Below, piece by piece: positions 18,472-59,822 of a stretch of 64,000 nucleotides of DNA. The translations under genes and the position numbers were made by a program. Location of the stretch: positions 683,666 through 747,665 of the forward strand of contig CP066690.1 in the NCBI GenBank assembly GCA_016432465.1. Reading direction: 5' to 3'. How positions within the stretch are numbered: position 1 is the first letter of the stretch; each line of letters starts with the position of its first letter. The DNA is from Candidatus Sungiibacteriota bacterium. GTDB taxonomy: Bacteria; Patescibacteriota; Minisyncoccia; Sungbacterales; HO2-52-23. The notes below the pieces were generated by a model. That model worked only from the letters and a program-made list of their open reading frames with translations. It had not been told where the DNA came from and ran no database searches.

Positions 18472-18500
18472 CATTGACCCGCACTGTCCTATTTGCTATG
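18472..18500 (+). promoter_or_regulatory. sigma70-like promoter (TTGACC-17-TATGAT) for infA. The inverted repeat GTCAAT..ATTGAC overlaps the -35 element
   Basis: Read directly from sequence. Confidence 0.45.
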
Positions 18501-18518
18501 ATTAAGAAGTAATTCTTT

Positions 18519-18734
18519 ATGAAGCAGGATAAGATATATATGGAAGGGATAGTGCTGGAAAATCTTCCGAGCACTCTTTTTAAGGTCAAAATGGACGACG
18601 GGCGGGAGATTTTGGCTCATCTATCGGGAAAAATGAGGCTTCATTTTATTAAGGTTCTGCCCGGAGATAGGGTGAGAGTGGAAATGACTCCGTACGATGA
18701 GACCAAGGGGAGAATTGTGCATAGATTAAAATAA
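18519..18734 (+). CDS. infA: translation initiation factor IF-1
   Basis: S1-like OB fold. Near-identical in length and conserved residues to IF-1. Confidence 0.95.
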
Positions 18735-18824
18735 TAGAAGCAAAATTAAACGCCACGCTCACGCAAAAGTAAACGCAATAGCGTATAGAGTTGCGTGATA
18801 GTTTGCGTTTAGACCTTGCTTCTA
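18735..18824 (+). repeat. palindromic intergenic repeat, copy 1. Ends TAGAAGCAAAATTAAACGC ... TTGCGTTTA..TGCTTCTA
   Basis: A second copy at 21467-21568 shares both ends. Nested inverted repeats. Confidence 0.6.
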
Positions 18825-18828
18825 CGGC

Positions 18829-18942
18829 ATGAAGGTTCGCGCTTCTGTTAAAAAAATTTGTGCAAGGTGCAAGCTCGTCCGGCGCAAAAGACGGCTTTTT
18901 GTTATTTGTACGAGCCCAAAGCATAAACAAAGACAAGGATGA
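18829..18942 (+). CDS. rpmJ: 50S ribosomal protein L36
   Basis: Hand translation [37 protein letters not shown]. Below the ORF-track length cutoff. Confidence 0.9.
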
Positions 18943-19325
18943 GAATCGTAGGAGTAAACATTCCTGATAATAAAAAAATAGAATACTCACTTCCATATAT
19001 ATATGGAATCGGTTTGCCGTCCGCAAGAAAGATAGTTCGTCAAGCCCAGGTAGATCCAAATAAATTGGCCAAAGATCTTACGCAGCAGGAGTCGGGCCGT
19101 ATCCGGGAGATAATAGAAAAAAGTTACAAAACAGAAGGAGACCTGCGAAGAGAGATCATGCTTAATGTTAAAAGATTAAAGGAGGTGCAAAGTTATCGCG
19201 GTATAAGGCATAGTCGTAGTCTTCCGGTTCGTGGACAGCGCACTAAAACCAACTCACGGACCAGACGCGGTAACGTACGAAGGACTATGGGCTCGGGTAG
19301 AAAACCAGCCGCAAGTCCGACTTAA
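18939..19325 (+). CDS. rpsM: 30S ribosomal protein S13
   Basis: Conserved S13 blocks (YIYGIG, EGDLRR, YRGIRH, PVRGQRT). Confidence 0.95.
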
Positions 19326-20497: not shown

Positions 20498-21469
20498 ATG
20501 AACATTCCTTTACCAGCAGCCCCAAAAATCGTATTGGAGGAAGGCAAGCGCGCTGTTTTTGAAATTGAGGGGTTATATCCCGGTTATGGCCAAACCGTAG
20601 GAAACAGTCTACGCCGCATTCTCTTATCTTCTTTAGATGGGTCTGTTATTACTTCGGTAAAAATAGAAGGTGTAGGACACGAGTTTTCAACCATAGAGGG
20701 CGTTGCGGAGGACGTGGTGGATATAATTTTAAACCTAAAACAGTTAAGGTTTCGTCTACATACTGAAGAGCCGGCAGTGATTAATCTCTCGGTAAAAGGT
20801 GAGAAAGAAGTAGTAGGCAAGGATTTTAAAACTCCTTCCCAAGTAGAGCTAGTGACACCAGATGTTCATGTAGCTACCATCACCTCCAAAAAGACAAGTC
20901 TTAACATTGAAGCGGTGGTGGAGTCGGGGCGTGGTTATGTACCCGTAGAGGCGCGTACTAAAGAAAAAGTAGAGGTGGGCACTATTGCGCTTGATGCCTC
21001 TTTTTCGCCGGTGCGGCATGTTAACTATGAAGTGGAAAATATGCGGGTTGGAGATCGCACCGATTTTAATCGTGTACGATTTCATATAGAAACCGACGGT
21101 TCCATAACGCCGCAGGAAGCTTTTAAAAGCGCAGCCCGAATTTTGGTTGAACAGTTTAGCGCTTTAGCGGAAGGTTTTACAGAACAGGTAACCAAAAATA
21201 AGTACGACGAAGAAACAGAGGAAGAAAAAGTTAGGAAAGAAGAGGTTGAGGAAAAAACAGAAGACGAGCCTATTCTTAAAACAAAACTGGACGAGTTAAA
21301 ATTTTCTAACCGTACTCTCAATGCGTTACGTGAGGCGGGTATTAAAACCGTAGGGGGGCTGGCACGTAAAAAAGAAGAAACGTTGAGAGAGATTGAGGGT
21401 TTGGGAGATAAAGGAATACAGGAGATAAAAAAAGCCTTGGGAAATTTTGGGATTACTTTGAAACAATAG
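20498..21469 (+). CDS. rpoA: DNA-directed RNA polymerase subunit alpha
   Basis: N-terminal dimerisation domain, an acidic linker and the C-terminal domain. Confidence 0.9.
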   Translation: MNIPLPAAPKIVLEEGKRAVFEIEGLYPGYGQTVGNSLRRILLSSLDGSVITSVKIEGVGHEFSTIEGVAEDVVDIILNLKQLRFRLHTEEPAVINLSVKGEKEVVGKDFKTPSQVELVTPDVHVATITSKKTSLNIEAVVESGRGYVPVEARTKEKVEVGTIALDASFSPVRHVNYEVENMRVGDRTDFNRVRFHIETDGSITPQEAFKSAARILVEQFSALAEGFTEQVTKNKYDEETEEEKVRKEEVEEKTEDEPILKTKLDELKFSNRTLNALREAGIKTVGGLARKKEETLREIEGLGDKGIQEIKKALGNFGITLKQ

Positions 21470-21568
21470 AAGCAAAATTAAACGCTACGAAATACGCAAA
21501 ACTAGACGCAAGCTTTTGAAATAATAGCGTTTAGGTTGCGTAATAACTTGCGTTTATCACTGCTTCTA
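21467..21568 (+). repeat. palindromic intergenic repeat, copy 2
   Basis: Same terminal sequences as copy 1. It lies between the rpoA stop and the rplQ start. Confidence 0.6.
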
Positions 21569-21573
21569 CGGAT

Positions 21574-21921
21574 ATGAGACATTTAAAAAAAGGCAGAAAA
21601 TTTGGTCGTGAACGAAATCAACGGCGTGCTTTATTGAAGAGTCTAGCCTCTTCATTTTTTATGTTGGGGAGAATAAAAACCACCGAAGCTAAAGCTAAAG
21701 AGCTAAGGTCACACGCCGAACCCTTTATTACGCGTGCCAAAAATCCGACTTTGGTTAATCGGCGTTATCTTGCACGTTTTTTTGACGAACGCACCGCAAA
21801 GAAAGTTTTTGAACGGGCGAACGAGTTTAAGAATCGTCAAGGCGGCTATACCCGGATTATAAAATCTGGTCGGCGTACAAGTGATGGCGCGAGGATGGCT
21901 ATAATTGAGTTTGTTAAATAA
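21574..21921 (+). CDS. rplQ: 50S ribosomal protein L17
   Basis: MRHLKKGRK..GR start and the conserved L17 core. Confidence 0.95.
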   Translation: MRHLKKGRKFGRERNQRRALLKSLASSFFMLGRIKTTEAKAKELRSHAEPFITRAKNPTLVNRRYLARFFDERTAKKVFERANEFKNRQGGYTRIIKSGRRTSDGARMAIIEFVK

Positions 21922-32553: not shown

Positions 32554-32686
32554 TGTAGTCCGTCAACCTTTTAAGTTGTTGTTTGCATTATTTTCTCCGG
32601 CATGCTATACTGTATATATAGCTTAGTATTAAAACATATTTAGGTCTTAGATATCTACTTTTCGTTGATGTTGAAAGGCCATTCAT

Positions 32687-32743
32687 CCCACACATAACTT
32701 GCACAGGGCATTTGTGCAAAGCACGGTGCAAGTTATGTGTGGG
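32687..32743. repeat. perfect 18-bp inverted repeat (CCCACACATAACTTGCAC ... GTGCAAGTTATGTGTGGG) with a 21-nt centre, flanked by ATTCAT direct repeats. MITE-like palindromic element or hairpin
   Basis: Read directly from sequence. It sits in a 490-nt intergenic region. Confidence 0.55.
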
Positions 32744-33046
32744 ATTCATCCTCCCAACTTTTTGCATCGATAGTTTCGGCTTATTTGCAAGCGGGCGAGT
32801 GAAAAGCAAACTTGTTTGCTTTTCCGAGCGAGTGCTGCAAATATAGGAGAAATTACCCTATATTTTTAAGATAAGACGCCAGAGGTATACGAAATCCTAC
32901 GGCACGTAGATACTTCGCTGCAAAAAGTTGGGAGGACAAGGTTTTAAGAAGAGCAAGGTCGTTACATAATTAGCTTTTAGCTTACAGCTTATAGCTTTCA
33001 GGATAATCCTAGAAGCTAATTCCTAAAAGCTAGAAGCTCGTCGAAA

Positions 33047-33244
33047 GTGGCTTTTCAAGATCAAAGAGGTGGATTTCAGGATGATCGTCCTAAGTACGAC
33101 ATCACCTGTTCCAAGTGCGGAGCAGCCTCTACAGTACCCTTCCCGCCAACTGCGGGACGCGATGTCTACTGTAAGGACTGTTTCCGTGAGATGAGACCGC
33201 CCCGTCGTGACTTTCACGGCGGTGGAGGATTCCGACCTCGATAA
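33047..33244 (+). CDS. small zinc-ribbon protein (CxxC-x17-CxxC)
   Basis: CSKC...CKDC. Confidence 0.5.
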   Translation: MAFQDQRGGFQDDRPKYDITCSKCGAASTVPFPPTAGRDVYCKDCFREMRPPRRDFHGGGGFRPR

Positions 33245-33247
33245 ATT

Positions 33248-33289
33248 AAACCAAAATCCCCTGAACAATGTTCAGGGGATTTTGGTTTA
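33248..33289. terminator. rho-independent terminator (perfect 17-bp stem)
   Basis: AAACCAAAATCCCCTGAACA-atg-TTCAGGGGATTTTGGTTT. Confidence 0.7.
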
Positions 33290-33315
33290 ATATACGGACG
33301 TAGTATAATTTCCGC

Positions 33316-38033: not shown

Positions 38034-38867
38034 ATGGATTTATCTCTCGTTATTCCGGCATTTATTGCTGGTATCCTGACATTTTTAGCTCCCTGCACCT
38101 TGCCTTTGGTGCCGGGTTATTTGGGCTTTATCAGCGGGGCCTCGCTGGAGGACTTAAAAGACCCGATGAAGGCGTCCACGGCCCGTCGTAAAATTTTTCG
38201 GAACGGTTTATTTTTTATTCTTGGATTTAGCGCCGTCTTTATTATTATGGGTACGTTAGTTGGATTTGTCGGAGCCTCTCTGCTTGCCCCTTACAGATTT
38301 TGGTTATCAAGAATTGGCGGCGTATTTGTTATTCTTTTCGGTCTTTTTATGCTTCACCCCGTTAGAAATCCGCCCCGCTTCTTAAGCGCGGCGGCAGCCG
38401 TCTTGGGGCGGCTTATTTCTAACGGGGTGAATGTTTTAAAAATTTCGTTTCTTGTTCGGGAAAAACAACTTAAGGCGCCGGGCGCATTGGAAAGAGGAAA
38501 GTCGCTAACTTCTTTTATATTAGGTTCGGCTTTTGCTTTTGGTTGGACTCCTTGCGTGGGGCCCATTCTTGGGTCCATTCTTCTTCTTGCTTCAACTTCA
38601 ACCACTGCGTTTCAGGGGTCTTTGCTTTTGGCTGTTTTTTCCGCAGGTCTTGCGGTTCCGTTTCTTCTGGTGGCACTGGGTATTGGTTCGGCCGCGAAAT
38701 TCATTTCCAAAATTTCTAAGTTTTTGAGCGTGGTATCTGTTATCGGCGGCCTTCTGCTTATTTTCTTGGGTATATTATTGCTTACGGGCAATATGGCCCT
38801 TCTGATTTCTTGGGGCTACCGTCTATTTCAATTCATCAACTATGAAAGGTTATTGGATTACTTATGA
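38034..38867 (+). CDS. ccdA: cytochrome c-type biogenesis/disulfide transporter CcdA (DsbD family)
   Basis: TM Cys pair (LAPCTLPLVP..., WTPCVGPILGSIL). A 71-nt palindromic insertion lies at 38357-38427. Confidence 0.75.
   Translation: MDLSLVIPAFIAGILTFLAPCTLPLVPGYLGFISGASLEDLKDPMKASTARRKIFRNGLFFILGFSAVFIIMGTLVGFVGASLLAPYRFWLSRIGGVFVILFGLFMLHPVRNPPRFLSAAAAVLGRLISNGVNVLKISFLVREKQLKAPGALERGKSLTSFILGSAFAFGWTPCVGPILGSILLLASTSTTAFQGSLLLAVFSAGLAVPFLLVALGIGSAAKFISKISKFLSVVSVIGGLLLIFLGILLLTGNMALLISWGYRLFQFINYERLLDYL
38357..38427 (+). repeat. CCCCGTTAGAAAT / ATTTCTAACGGGG palindromic element inserted within the ccdA coding sequence
   Basis: Arms at 38357-38369 and 38415-38427, with a nested CCGCCCC/GGGGCGG pair inside. 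Confidence 0.5.
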
Positions 38868-54531: not shown

Positions 54532-55291
54532 CATGATGCGACGTGGTCAAATAATTAAGGTGGTAGCGGCAGTGATTCTTCTCGGGCTGCTTATTTTTTT
54601 TAGTAACGCCGGTTTTGCCAAAAGTATACGCATGGGAATAGTTTTGATTTTCCGGCCCCTGATGAAGATTTCACAAGCTGTCCGAGGAACCTCACTAAAA
54701 TTGTCAGATAAAGAGGTTTTGGATCTTGTCAAAGAAAACCAGCGCCTTAAAGCGTCTCTTTTTGATGCGGAAAAATTAAAACTTGAAAATGAATCCCTGA
54801 AAAAAGCCCTCGGGTTTAAAGAAACTGTCGCGCCGCGCCTTCGGGGTGCAAGAGTTTTGCTTCATGCCCGGGAACTCGGCAAAGAACTTTTAGTGGTTGA
54901 TCATGGTGAAAACTCCGGAATCAAAAAGGGCATGTTGGTTACAGATTCTAACCGGATGTTGGTTGGAAGGGTGTTTGAAGCAGGACCGAACATCGCCAAG
55001 ATTTCTGTTGCCTCCAATCCGGAGGAGGCTTTTGAAGCAGATATCATACCGCTACGCGTCAGAACTTTAATCAAAGGTATCGGCGGCAAGACCTTTTCGC
55101 TGGAGTTAATTTCAGCCGATGCCGCACTGCGTCAGGGGGATTTTGTTATGCTTTCCGGTAAAATGCCCCTTTTGGCGGGCGAGATAACATCCATCGGGCA
55201 AACTTCCGGCAGCGCTTTTAAAGAAGTGCGGGCCTCATTGCTTTCTCGTCCGGAAACGCTTCAGGAGGTATTTATTATTTCTTCGCCTTAG
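54512..55291 (+). CDS. mreC: rod shape-determining protein MreC
   Basis: N-terminal TM segment, a coiled coil (LKLENESLKKAL) and the C-terminal beta domain. Confidence 0.75.
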   Translation: MRKSQPNMMRRGQIIKVVAAVILLGLLIFFSNAGFAKSIRMGIVLIFRPLMKISQAVRGTSLKLSDKEVLDLVKENQRLKASLFDAEKLKLENESLKKALGFKETVAPRLRGARVLLHARELGKELLVVDHGENSGIKKGMLVTDSNRMLVGRVFEAGPNIAKISVASNPEEAFEADIIPLRVRTLIKGIGGKTFSLELISADAALRQGDFVMLSGKMPLLAGEITSIGQTSGSAFKEVRASLLSRPETLQEVFIISSP

Positions 55292-55504
55292 GACCTCTTA
55301 CACAATAACAATTCTACTGCAACTCCAGAATTTTGGCTGCAAATCGTTCAGGCTTCGTCGTCTTATATGCACCATATAGGCCTCCTCATCCTTCACGATT
55401 TTCGCTCAAAATTCTGGAATTTCGGAGACGGGGCGATTTCGCTGCTGTGAAATGCGCCTCGCGTCTTGACACGAATGCTTATTGTGTAAAAGGTCTTTAG
55501 AATT

Positions 55505-58298: not shown

Positions 58299-59822
58299 AT
58301 GGCTTTAGAAGATATTCGTAAGGAACGGCTCAAAAAATTAGAAAAGCTGCAAAGTACTGGTAGTGACCCCTATCCGGCCGAGTCGGGCCGGACGCATTTG
58401 ATTGGGGAAGTTTTAAAGAAATTCTCGGCATTGGCTAAGTCCAAAAAAGCGGTGGCCGTGGCGGGGCGCATAATGGCTAAGCGCGAGCATGGGGGATCAA
58501 CATTTATTGATATTCAAGACGCAGGCGGTCCGCCCCTTCGGGGTGAGGCTCGCCCAGCTTCGCTGGGCGGCAAAATTCAAGCCTATTTCAAGAATAACGT
58601 GTTGGGGGAGAAGTACGGGATGTTTATGGAGACCGTTGATATTGGCGATTTTCTCGGTATAGAGGGGAAGCTTTTTAAAACCAAAAAAGGCGAGGAGACG
58701 ATTGAGGTTTCTGGCTGGCAGATGCTGGCAAAATCGCTCCGGCCCCTGCCCGAGAAATGGCATGGTTTGCAGGATGTGGAGGAGCGTTTCCGAAAACGAT
58801 ACTTGGATATTTTGATGAACCCGGAAGTTCGCGAGCGATTTGAGACGCGCTCCAAAATCATCAGGGTCCTGCGCGATTTTTTTGAGAAAAACGGCTTTTT
58901 AGAAGTAGAAACACCCATGCTTCATCCAATTCCCGGAGGGGCGCTCGCCAAGCCCTTTGTAACGCATCATAATGCTTTGGATATTGATTTATATTTGCGG
59001 ATTGCGCCCGAACTTTATTTGAAGCGTTTACTCATAGCCGGCTGGGAGAAGATATTTGAAATTGGCAAAAGTTTCCGTAACGAGGGAATTGACGCATCGC
59101 ATAATCCTGAATTCACAGAACCCGAATGCTACGCTGCTTACTGGGATGAAGAAGATATGATGAAGTTTGTTGAAGATTTATTTTTATCGCTATTGAGGTC
59201 GGACCTCGATAGAAGCTATCGAGGTCCGACCTCCAGACATCAAGTTGAATTTGAAGGTAAAAAAATTATTTTCAAAAAACCATTTCCGCGGATCGCTTTT
59301 AAAGAGCTTCTCAAGCGCTACGCCTTAGTTATTGACTACGACAGTGAGTCGCGGGATTCTTTGGCTACCCGTGCGCGGCAATTTGGAATTGAAGTAGGTC
59401 GGCATGAAACAAAAGGGAAAATTGCGGATGAGATTTATAAAAAAATCTGCCGGCCGCACTTGGTACAGCCGACGTTTGTGGTAAATCACCCGTTGGATAT
59501 ATCGCCTTTGGCCAAAAGGGCAAAGCATGCAGGAGAAGTTAGGCGTTTCCAGCTTGTCGCAGGCGGTATGGAGCTCACCAACGGTTTTGCGGAACTAAAT
59601 GACCCCTTGGATCAGCGAAAACGATTTGAAGAACAAGAAAATCTTCGCGGCGGAGGTGAAGAAGAGGCGCATCGGATTGACGAAGATTATATGGAAGCCA
59701 TGGAATACGGAATGCCCCCTGCTGCCGGTCTTGGAATCGGTCTTGATAGAGTGGTGATGCTATTTACCAATACCAAAAACATTCGTGAGGTAGTATTGTT
59801 CCCCACAATGAGGCAGAAATAA
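58299..59822 (+). CDS. lysS: lysine--tRNA ligase (class II)
   Basis: OB anticodon-binding N-terminus and class II motifs 1-3 (FRNEG, GGAG.GIDR). Confidence 0.9.
   Translation: MALEDIRKERLKKLEKLQSTGSDPYPAESGRTHLIGEVLKKFSALAKSKKAVAVAGRIMAKREHGGSTFIDIQDAGGPPLRGEARPASLGGKIQAYFKNNVLGEKYGMFMETVDIGDFLGIEGKLFKTKKGEETIEVSGWQMLAKSLRPLPEKWHGLQDVEERFRKRYLDILMNPEVRERFETRSKIIRVLRDFFEKNGFLEVETPMLHPIPGGALAKPFVTHHNALDIDLYLRIAPELYLKRLLIAGWEKIFEIGKSFRNEGIDASHNPEFTEPECYAAYWDEEDMMKFVEDLFLSLLRSDLDRSYRGPTSRHQVEFEGKKIIFKKPFPRIAFKELLKRYALVIDYDSESRDSLATRARQFGIEVGRHETKGKIADEIYKKICRPHLVQPTFVVNHPLDISPLAKRAKHAGEVRRFQLVAGGMELTNGFAELNDPLDQRKRFEEQENLRGGGEEEAHRIDEDYMEAMEYGMPPAAGLGIGLDRVVMLFTNTKNIREVVLFPTMRQK

Follow-up and report, generated by a model that had tools for sequence, protein, structure and literature searches.

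What are the two palindromic sequences that lie within the infA-rpmJ-rpsM-rpsK-rpsD-rpoA-rplQ operon of a Candidatus Sungiibacteriota bacterium, one between infA and rpmJ and the other between rpoA and rplQ? The 64,000-nt stretch of DNA analysed here (contig CP066690.1, positions 683,666 to 747,665; hereafter the window) had been annotated once before from its letters alone, and that sequence-only reading proposed that the palindromes could be mobile, could be a shared RNase III or processing site, or could be a structure that takes the place of the ribosome-binding site of rpmJ and rplQ. We find that both are members, without an open reading frame (ORF), of a dispersed family of box-array palindromes whose long members encode a PD-(D/E)XK nuclease. 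Mobilisation by the nuclease, and whatever role the copies may have in translation, are what we infer.

Two copies of one box-array element

The two copies and their parts are as follows.

18735..18824, plus strand: copy 1 (90 nt) of the box-array palindromic element, infA-rpmJ junction, sense strand in A orientation
18735..18742, plus strand: copy 1 terminal box TAGAAGCA, which pairs with TGCTTCTA at 18817-18824
18748..18778, plus strand: copy 1 left-arm boxes, AAACGC at 18748-18753, ACGCAA at 18761-18766 and AAACGCAA at 18771-18778 (phasing from the family consensus)
18780..18810, plus strand: copy 1 right-arm boxes, AGCGT at 18780-18784, TTGCGT at 18791-18796 and TTGCGTTT at 18803-18810
18825..18828, plus strand: 4-nt spacer CGGC, from the end of copy 1 to the rpmJ ATG at 18829
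21467..21568, plus strand: copy 2 of the box-array palindromic element, 102 nt, same orientation as copy 1, rpoA-rplQ junction
21480..21511, plus strand: copy 2 left-arm boxes, AAACGC at 21480-21485, ACGCAA at 21494-21499 and AGACGCAA at 21504-21511
21526..21568, plus strand: copy 2 right-arm boxes, AGCGT at 21526-21530, TTGCGT at 21536-21541, TTGCGTTT at 21548-21555 and the terminal box TGCTTCTA at 21561-21568
21569..21573, plus strand: 5-nt spacer CGGAT, from the end of copy 2 to the rplQ ATG at 21574

The presence of two palindromes with common termini at these positions, as the sequence-only reading had it, is confirmed by a shared 19-mer, by the arm pattern, by a family covariance model and by folding; the size it gave, roughly 100 nt, is approximate, the actual lengths being 90 nt and 102 nt. 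The 19-mer TAGAAGCAAAATTAAACGC, common to both copies, occurs twice in the 64 kb against 0.05 expected, and none of 100 shuffles held two or more matches. The arm pattern (TAGAAGCA, 4-7 nt, AAACGC, 6-10 nt, ACGCAA) hits the two arms of each copy and no other site in the window. Run with its filters off, the covariance model likewise picks out these two alone (E 8e-18 and 1e-16; next best E about 1), scoring at full model length 87.8 bits on the plus strand against 73.4 on the minus strand for copy 1, and 83.1 against 70.0 for copy 2. The copies are identical in 84% of aligned columns, their main difference being a loop that is 13 nt longer in copy 2, and they share an AA before the TAG and a CGG after the CTA that the copies of other genomes lack. 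As RNA they fold into long interrupted hairpins (minimum free energy -38.0 and -37.7 kcal/mol, z -6.1 and -6.2), with a stability that none of 200 shuffles matched; the opposite strand of both, and single-stranded DNA, fold about equally well.

Scanned with Rfam at both gathering and permissive thresholds, neither copy matched a family; in the window, tRNAs alone passed the threshold. The only match nearby was a sub-threshold Alpha_RBS at 18870-18968, outside the copies (16 bits against a gathering score of 38), and the related loci that were scanned gave no match either.

Architecture of the family

Twenty-two full-length short copies align to a 91-nt consensus, TAGAAGCAAAATTAAACGCAAnnnnTnACGCAAAATTAnACGCAAATTGCGTTTAnnGTTGCGTAATCGTTTGCGTTTATCATTGCTTCTA. 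Each arm consists of the terminal box TAGAAGCA and three ACGC(AA) boxes set at an exact 12-nt period, and the two arms are inverted, so that the GC cores of the consensus fall at positions 7, 19, 31 and 43 in the left arm and at 49, 61, 73 and 85 in the right. Across genomes the short form is 89-93 nt long with a uniform loop; with the window copies included the range is 89-102 nt. Both window copies show the traits by which we name the family, namely a terminal TAGAAGC-NN box and three ACGC-NN boxes per arm, 12-nt phasing and inverted arms. The spacers between the boxes are not mirror images, being of AAATT type on the left and of ATCAT or ATCGT type on the right. The element therefore has an orientation, and in both window copies the AAATT arm lies 5' on the sense strand.

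One strand, whether RNA or DNA, can fold into four helices of 4-9 bp parted by internal loops of 3x3 to 7x7 nt, and all of the 23 pairs that RNAalifold predicts fall inside boxes. To judge from this alignment, the hairpin potential stems from inverted arrays of one conserved box, and covariation does not separate pairing from box sequence as the conserved trait, nor an RNA structure from inverted sites for protein binding.

Long forms carry a nuclease gene

Two members of the family, of 481 nt (locus L112, between a release-factor gene with RF-1/PCRF domains and an ABC-ATPase gene taken as ftsE) and of 496 nt (L113), are long forms whose loops hold an ORF of 137 or 131 aa. The start of this ORF follows closely on the third left box, and at its other end the final codons run into the innermost right box. 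Its product is a GxxExxY protein (TIGR04256; Pfam PF13366, PDDEXK_3) of the PD-(D/E)XK nuclease family, and the long forms encode nothing but this protein of 131-141 aa. All 25 homologues compared have the catalytic D...ExK residues (D71, E81, K83) unchanged, and an AlphaFold2 model of the protein has a nuclease fold (mean predicted local distance difference test score 89.8). A fold search against PDB returned weak generic PD-(D/E)XK matches with E above 1e-3 (Cas4, archaeal Hjc, splicing endonucleases), and a sequence search against PDB gave no match.

A protein search gave 125 clusters of close homologues, of which the few with source names all come from bacteria belonging to the candidate phyla radiation (CPR; Patescibacteria). 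Among six homologues whose flanks were inspected, five lie between clear arms (L112, L113, L137, L138, L140) and one between degenerate ones (L142). The two bases that follow GC differ between elements, but any one element has matching bases in its terminal and internal boxes and in its left and right arms; the sets are TAGAAGC-TG with ACGC-TG, TAGAAGC-CA with ACGC-CA, TAGAAGC-GG with ACGC-AG or GG, and TAGAAGC-AA with ACGC-AA. Short copies prevail, 23 full-length ones having been characterised against 2 long forms of the AA type. In L138 the annotated start of the PHP-domain gene downstream of the long element, at position 1630, falls inside the right terminal box (ATGGCTTCTA).

More distant GxxExxY genes (30-36% identity) are present on plasmids of Fusobacteria, Treponema and Prevotella (L150, L151, L152). 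In L150 and L152 the gene is flanked by direct repeats of about 20-80 nt that apparently duplicate the leader of the downstream gene, and in L151 by an 11-bp inverted repeat. Beyond the CPR, too, GxxExxY genes may act as cassettes that get inserted. These plasmid genes have no box arrays, and the arms are thus demonstrated for the CPR clade only.

Distribution across genomes

The arm-pattern scan covered 185,579 species-representative genomes, among which the source genome evidently is not. It returned 47 loci, about 30 of them real elements, in at least nine CPR genomes other than the source. The remaining loci are single-arm matches in unrelated taxa; for this pattern and a collection of this size, about 22 are estimated by chance. 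The elements are distributed as follows.

Sungbacteria RIFCSPLOWO2_01_FULL_47_10 (MHQO01): 9 loci
Sungiibacteriota metagenome-assembled genome (MAG) JACPBG01: 4 loci
Parcubacteria GW2011_GWA2_42_14 (LCCV01): 5 loci
MAG JAUSFV01: 5 loci
MAGs labelled Saccharibacteria: 5 loci
Portnoybacteria and Gr01-1014_33: 1 locus each

The spread of the family across CPR classes is read from record titles. Five loci (L089, L112, L118, L119, L129) come from MAGs titled "Candidatus Saccharibacteria"; the RpoA and S13 proteins of L089 are 59% and 73% identical to those of the Sungbacteria window, about as close as other Parcubacteria of the set.

The neighbours of the elements are varied and include a release factor (RF-1/PCRF domains), an FtsE-like ABC-transporter ATPase, a helix-turn-helix protein, RecA, GARS, ATP synthase A, IF3, L23 and a protein of the EPSP-synthase family. 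Solo arms and degenerate copies are present; L102 is a composite copy, and L135 is a copy that has a second insertion nested in it. Elsewhere the family occupies other junctions of the operon found in the window, rpmJ-rpsM in L089 and rpsD-rpoA in L131; an initial placement of the L089 element at the junction of copy 1 was rejected, as tblastn puts it at rpmJ-rpsM. Two junctions are shared between genomes, one on the ftsE side, where of two Sungbacteria one has a full short element (L103) and the other a solo arm (L121), and one after infC (L097 and L119).

Identity between copies averages 0.77 within a genome and 0.75 between genomes, with best pairs at 0.88-0.89. The divergence lies in the spacers and the loop, and the boxes are intact even on the arm that the search pattern did not demand. 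Judged from these sequences, the family does not look like the product of a recent burst. Two accounts agree with this, namely old and diversified master lineages whose movement still depends on intact boxes, or host selection on the boxes. A scan of viral contigs gave two matches, both by chance, inside coding sequence and without a second arm, and hence no evidence of carriage by phages.

Placement between stop and start codons

Gene identities in the operon were assigned with Pfam, which recovers IF-1, L36, S13, S11, S4, RpoA and L17 and bears out the gene order infA, rpmJ, rpsM, rpsK, rpsD, rpoA, rplQ given by the sequence-only reading. The features next to the two copies are these.

18474..18502, plus strand: promoter-like site upstream of infA (TTGACC, 17 nt, TATGAT), from a consensus scan only
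18519..18734, plus strand: infA (IF-1, Pfam), whose stop codon TAA at 18732-18734 directly abuts the TAG of copy 1
18829..18942, plus strand: rpmJ (L36, Pfam), downstream of copy 1
20498..21469, plus strand: rpoA (Pfam), whose stop codon is the first three bases of copy 2, TAG
21574..21921, plus strand: rplQ (L17, Pfam), downstream of copy 2

In the consensus scan neither copy showed a promoter-like site or, on the sense strand, a terminator-like one; the single match was an antisense terminator-like site inside copy 1. Given this and the promoter-like site upstream of infA, the copies should be transcribed within the operon mRNA.

Both copies had been thought to begin at the stop codon of the upstream gene. 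This holds for copy 2 and fails for copy 1, which the infA stop precedes; both do end 4-5 nt before the next ATG, as had been seen. The lack of a Shine-Dalgarno (SD) site at rpmJ and rplQ is likewise real, yet nothing special, for within the window only 5 of the 54 long ORFs (at least 150 aa) have an SD-like motif upstream, the upstream regions being A/T-rich. The organism appears to initiate translation largely without SD pairing.

The same placement recurs in the family. Neighbouring ORFs were located for 25 members. In about 10 of them the element's TAG serves as the stop codon of the upstream gene, and in the others that stop lies 0-33 nt upstream of the element. Since the element reads TAG...CTA, it offers a TAG on whichever strand is read, and in L095 two convergent genes both end in it. 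In 18 of the 25, 4-6 nt separate the element from the next start codon, whereas only 14.6% of native spacers of up to 40 nt in the same operon of relatives are 4-6 nt long (P = 1.5e-10). This spacing holds for antisense-oriented copies (L133, L134) and where no upstream ORF reads in (L134, L127, L135), and the 4-6 nt themselves show no consensus. On the outer side of the 25 copies, G stands at -1 in 14 and C at +1 in 13, giving termini that often read GTAG...CTAC. No specific target sequence is apparent in the flanks, nor any common direct repeat beyond the terminal TA, which is itself part of the palindrome.

The operon in relatives

Eighty related operon loci were fetched from metagenomes, and a few more by exact protein lookup, the nearest other RpoA being 77% identical to that of the window. 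The sequence-only reading implied a conserved feature of the operon. This did not survive the comparison, the family model having found no copy in 45 related operon loci save one weak match in L039. Intercistronic spacers in these relatives run from overlaps to about 250 nt, and four loci have 2-10 nt and no element at infA-rpmJ or rpoA-rplQ (L012, L020, L021, L024), which indicates that the element is not required for expression of rpmJ or rplQ. A structure in place of the RBS, as suggested for these two genes, agrees with the start spacing in the family and with a genome nearly free of SD sites, which together imply a constraint on the hairpin base relative to the AUG, but these relatives manage without the element.

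Most long spacers in the relatives hold other palindromes of the same style, built from short repeated boxes and their complements, with a box that differs by family (GCAAATA, CTACAAG, GAAAAAT, CACGA, CGAATA, TGCCAAT/GCGAAT, AGGTGTA). In L006-L088, L089, L131 and L136 nearly every junction from infA to rplQ can hold a phased-box palindrome of 60-250 nt that ends near the start codon. For instance, L028 has four near-identical palindromes at four consecutive junctions and L089 has one family at four junctions.

Several Sungbacteria also carry, in their spacers, a recurring larger hairpin element of 130-215 nt with the motif CTCGAC(C/A)CG... and a GC-rich inner stem, at the following sites.

L006: 444-581 and 3093-3174
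L013: 4458-4652
L024: 479-649
L025: 1720-1892
L136: 990-1204

Yet another spacer family (AAAGGGCTTTGTCTAAAATTT...) is shared by L026 and L131. Neither the 130-215-nt hairpins nor this family have an Rfam match in the loci scanned, L131 lying outside that scan.

Other inverted repeats were seen within the window. A nested palindrome of about 215 nt at 55287-55500 starts at the stop of an ORF that ends at 55291, and its arms recur, by eye with few changes, in L013 (about 1500-1665), where they belong to the second of the hairpins between infA and rpmJ; it is a different palindromic element, conserved across genomes. Besides this there are a 19-nt inverted repeat at 237-360 that flanks the tRNA at 264-335, four clustered inverted repeats at 32685-33301, a 22-nt inverted repeat at 38353-38431 and a perfect 18-nt palindrome at 59195-59233. 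Between rplQ and rplM, finally, the window has a 90-aa GIY-YIG ORF (PF01541; 21921-22193) that overlaps the rplQ stop by 1 nt, whereas relatives such as L006 have only a 33-nt spacer in this gap. It has the look of another small nuclease gene that was inserted at a stop-start junction.

Assembly breaks at copy 2

Logan contigs of the window strain from five sequencing runs (L001-L005) all end at ...AAACAATAGA, four bases into copy 2, while copy 1 is assembled through in Logan contigs of the same strain. At the junction of copy 2 the window reads ...CAATAGA followed by AGCAAAATT, and the relative L136 reads CAATAGAC... after rpoA. A second allele that diverges after TAGA would explain the contig break, and there may be a population polymorphism at copy 2. 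Exact lookup of the window L17 protein, encoded on the far side of the break, found it not on record, and lookup of L13 (rplM) found one Logan contig, from one of the five samples (SRR12113384), that starts inside the GIY-YIG ORF.

The C-terminus of RpoA, ...LKQ followed by the stop, matches that of the relatives L006 and L136. A TA target duplication, considered for copy 2, is not supported there, for removal of the element with one TA leaves rpoA without its conserved stop after ...LKQ.

Comparison with known systems

The REPINs formed from repetitive extragenic palindromic (REP) sequences and their REP-associated tyrosine transposases (RAYTs) resemble the present elements in being imperfect palindromes of about 100 nt with two inverted halves, dispersed between genes and accompanied by solo halves (Bertels and Rainey 2011, PMC3116915; PMC3337134). 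In both systems the enzyme gene is itself flanked by inverted repeats and is outnumbered by the repeats. A further likeness is found in the GTAG...CTAC termini, as REPs carry a conserved 5' GTAG. The enzymes differ, however, the box-array protein being a 130-aa GxxExxY nuclease of PD-(D/E)XK type and the RAYT an HUH/Y1 transposase like those of IS200/IS605. A box-array arm, moreover, has four 12-nt-phased boxes in place of one REP hairpin, there are no large, near-identical populations within a genome (best pair 0.88, among loci from the pattern scan), and the element is set precisely between stop and start codons.

Miniature inverted-repeat transposable elements (MITEs) such as the Correia elements of Neisseria are short and ORF-less, have terminal inverted repeats, are co-transcribed with their neighbours and form hairpins in mRNA. 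With termini TAGAAGCA...TGCTTCTA, a length of 89-102 nt and no ORF, the short copies fit this description, and their TA...TA ends would fit a TA target duplication. In contrast to MITEs, the long forms encode a PD-(D/E)XK protein, and no parent with a DDE transposase is known for the family; no outward-facing promoter was detected in the copies, and the subterminal box arrays have no counterpart in Correia elements.

Mycobacterial interspersed repetitive units (MIRUs) are intercistronic repeats of operons whose ends lie at the flanking stop and start codons. The box-array elements share this placement, but MIRUs, which lack both a palindromic form and a nuclease partner, are direct tandem units with short coupling ORFs encoded in them. 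Free-standing homing-endonuclease genes, similarly, are small nuclease genes between conserved housekeeping genes across distant lineages, as the long forms are; unlike them, the box-array family occupies many sites per genome, is dominated by ORF-less forms and has no apparent target in its flanks.

Intervening sequences of 23S rRNA occur with or without an ORF, as in Coxiella (PMC4990558), and insertions in rRNA are also described for the CPR (PMC11270868). They too are selfish stem-loop insertions with short ORF-less and longer versions, the latter with a small ORF in the loop, and are sporadic and common in reduced genomes. The box-array copies differ in lying in intercistronic spacers of mRNA and in having an ORF of PF13366 rather than PF05635, and their interrupted helices would presumably make poor substrates for RNase III. 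TIGR arrays, for their part, consist of 5-15 tandem 36-nt units, each with two alternating repeats of 8-12 nt (edge and loop) and 9-nt spacers A and B, and adjoin a tas gene with a Nop domain (PMC12045711).

On GxxExxY or PF13366 the literature searched has next to nothing, apart from a catalogue entry that lists the GxxExxY/PDDEXK_3 family with "unknown" function (PMC3424549). It has nothing on palindromic repeats of the box-array kind in CPR genomes, and no description of an association between the two. The nearest concept is that of REPIN and RAYT, but enzyme class, arm architecture and population structure differ.

Origin of the short copies

We consider it probable, at roughly 0.6, that the short copies are non-autonomous derivatives, of the MITE or REPIN kind, of the nuclease-bearing element, and that they are kept only in the geometry that translation of the operon tolerates. 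The nuclease would recognise the phased boxes, and short copies would arise either by mobilisation in trans, with the nuclease bound to those boxes, or by loss of the ORF in place. The co-varying suffix fits recognition of the boxes by the nuclease; common descent would also yield such agreement. Mobility, one of the possibilities in the sequence-only reading, holds in kind, given the dispersed non-orthologous sites, the solo arms, the composite copy, the nested insertion and the long members with their nuclease; transposition itself is putative.

Once inserted, the copies would be co-transcribed with the operon and would be retained only where expression stays intact. The TAG would terminate the upstream gene, the base of the hairpin would bring the upstream stop and the downstream start within a few nucleotides of each other in space, and, with the AUG kept 4 nt or more away from the helix, re-initiation, or initiation beside the helix, would remain possible in an organism nearly free of SD sites. 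In initiation complexes the SD/anti-SD helix normally sits at a spacing of 4-6 nt from the AUG, and termination-reinitiation needs stop and start close together. A helix that ends 4-6 nt before the AUG might thus be tolerated, or even useful, where SD sites are lacking. Genome compaction would fit as well, deletions trimming both flanks down to a limit that the TAG would set at one end and a distance of about 4 nt at the other.

Several observations weigh against this reading. The data examined contain no transposition event, target-site duplication or empty site, the 64-kb window has no GxxExxY gene, and neither the sequence nor the fold search of PDB found a characterised close relative of the nuclease. 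No pair of copies in any genome exceeds 88-89% identity, and identity within genomes equals that between them, so that there is no sign of recent bursts. Conservation of the boxes beside diverged spacers could equally mean selection at the level of the host, and the junctions common to L103 and L121 and to L097 and L119 also fit vertical inheritance. The sense orientation is weakly favoured (15:6, P = 0.08). Where the reading invokes RNA structure, the covariation test on the 22 aligned copies, which the sequence-only reading had named as a check, gave no compensatory change among the 23 predicted pairs, and one-sided changes break pairs, so that on this alignment a selected RNA structure is unproven.

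Alternatively, the element may be an intercistronic RNA device selected by the host, in which the terminal 8-9-bp helix, 4-6 nt before the AUG and with stop and start juxtaposed, would promote initiation or coupling by reinitiation, its mobility being secondary or extinct; we regard this as possible, at odds well short of even. The constancy of the start spacing (18 of 25, in both orientations and also without an upstream ORF, as in L134, L127 and L135) is what such a device would show, the distance to the upstream stop being far more variable (from a shared TAG to 33 nt), and the nearly SD-free genome and the boxes conserved though spacers diverged point the same way, as do the unrelated box-array hairpins that end near the start codon at nearly every operon junction in relatives. 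The tolerance of broken pairs without any compensation argues against it, however, and the conserved arm spacers (AAATT versus ATCAT) are not mutually complementary, so that sequence rather than pairing is conserved. Nor does a host device sit well with an antisense orientation in about 6 of 21 copies, with solo arms and degenerate copies, or with the 2-10-nt spacers at the same junctions in L012, L020, L021 and L024, which make it dispensable.

We think it unlikely that the short copies are scars formed in place, that is, junctions that once held a GxxExxY cassette and whose arms were fused by deletion of the ORF, the 91-nt form never moving alone. The ORF does fill the loop exactly, to the point that its last codons overlap the innermost right-arm box, no genome has near-identical copies, and at the L103/L121 junction one Sungbacteria genome has a full short element where a second has a solo arm, all of which such scars would explain. 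Independent deletions would not be expected to leave short forms that keep so closely, from genome to genome, to 89-93 nt and to one kind of loop, and the excess of short over long forms (23 against 2 of the AA type) is a further difficulty.

A shared RNase III or processing site is not favoured, as the helices reach only 4-9 bp between internal loops of 3x3 to 7x7 nt and no compensatory pair was found. That both window copies lie on the sense strand of one ribosomal-protein operon might suggest a cis-regulatory RNA specific to it, for instance a site of ribosomal-protein autoregulation or a dedicated RNase III signal of the infA-rplQ operon; with no Rfam family at either copy, the family absent from this operon in 45 relatives apart from one weak match, and elements elsewhere at other junctions of the operon (L089, L131) and beside unrelated genes, this is very improbable. 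Least credible is a guide-RNA array of TIGR or CRISPR type, for although short conserved boxes, variable spacers of 5-8 nt and CPR hosts, in which TIGR-Tas systems occur (PMC12045711), recall one, the anatomy rejects it through a 12-nt period, partly conserved spacers, inverted halves, single dispersed copies inside operons and no tas gene nearby.

Significance

That the window copies are ORF-less members of a family with nuclease-bearing long forms bears on practice as well as on biology. The elements coincide with short-read assembly breaks, as at the left edge of copy 2 in the Logan contigs of five samples, and they may mislead gene callers at stop and start codons, as where the start called in L138 falls inside a right arm.

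Going further, and tentatively, we speculate that this is an undescribed class of CPR mobile element, in which a minimal GxxExxY nuclease recognises the 12-nt-phased boxes of the two inverted arms and spreads itself along with ORF-less 91-nt hairpins, whose form has been adapted, or recruited, to span the gap from stop to start codon. The terminal helix might then replace the SD/anti-SD helix or keep termination-reinitiation coupling, and the other box-array palindromes might be sister families; we hold this wider proposal with more doubt than belief.

If true, these findings would provide the first concrete genetic context for the large GxxExxY/PDDEXK_3 family, which would supply the enzyme for a compact selfish element whose DNA boxes are defined. 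They would also mean that streamlined CPR genomes of about 0.9 Mb tolerate palindromes of 70-200 nt at most junctions of their most conserved operon, and the rule of 4-6 nt between start and helix would offer a way into the question of how translation is begun or coupled where Shine-Dalgarno sites are absent.

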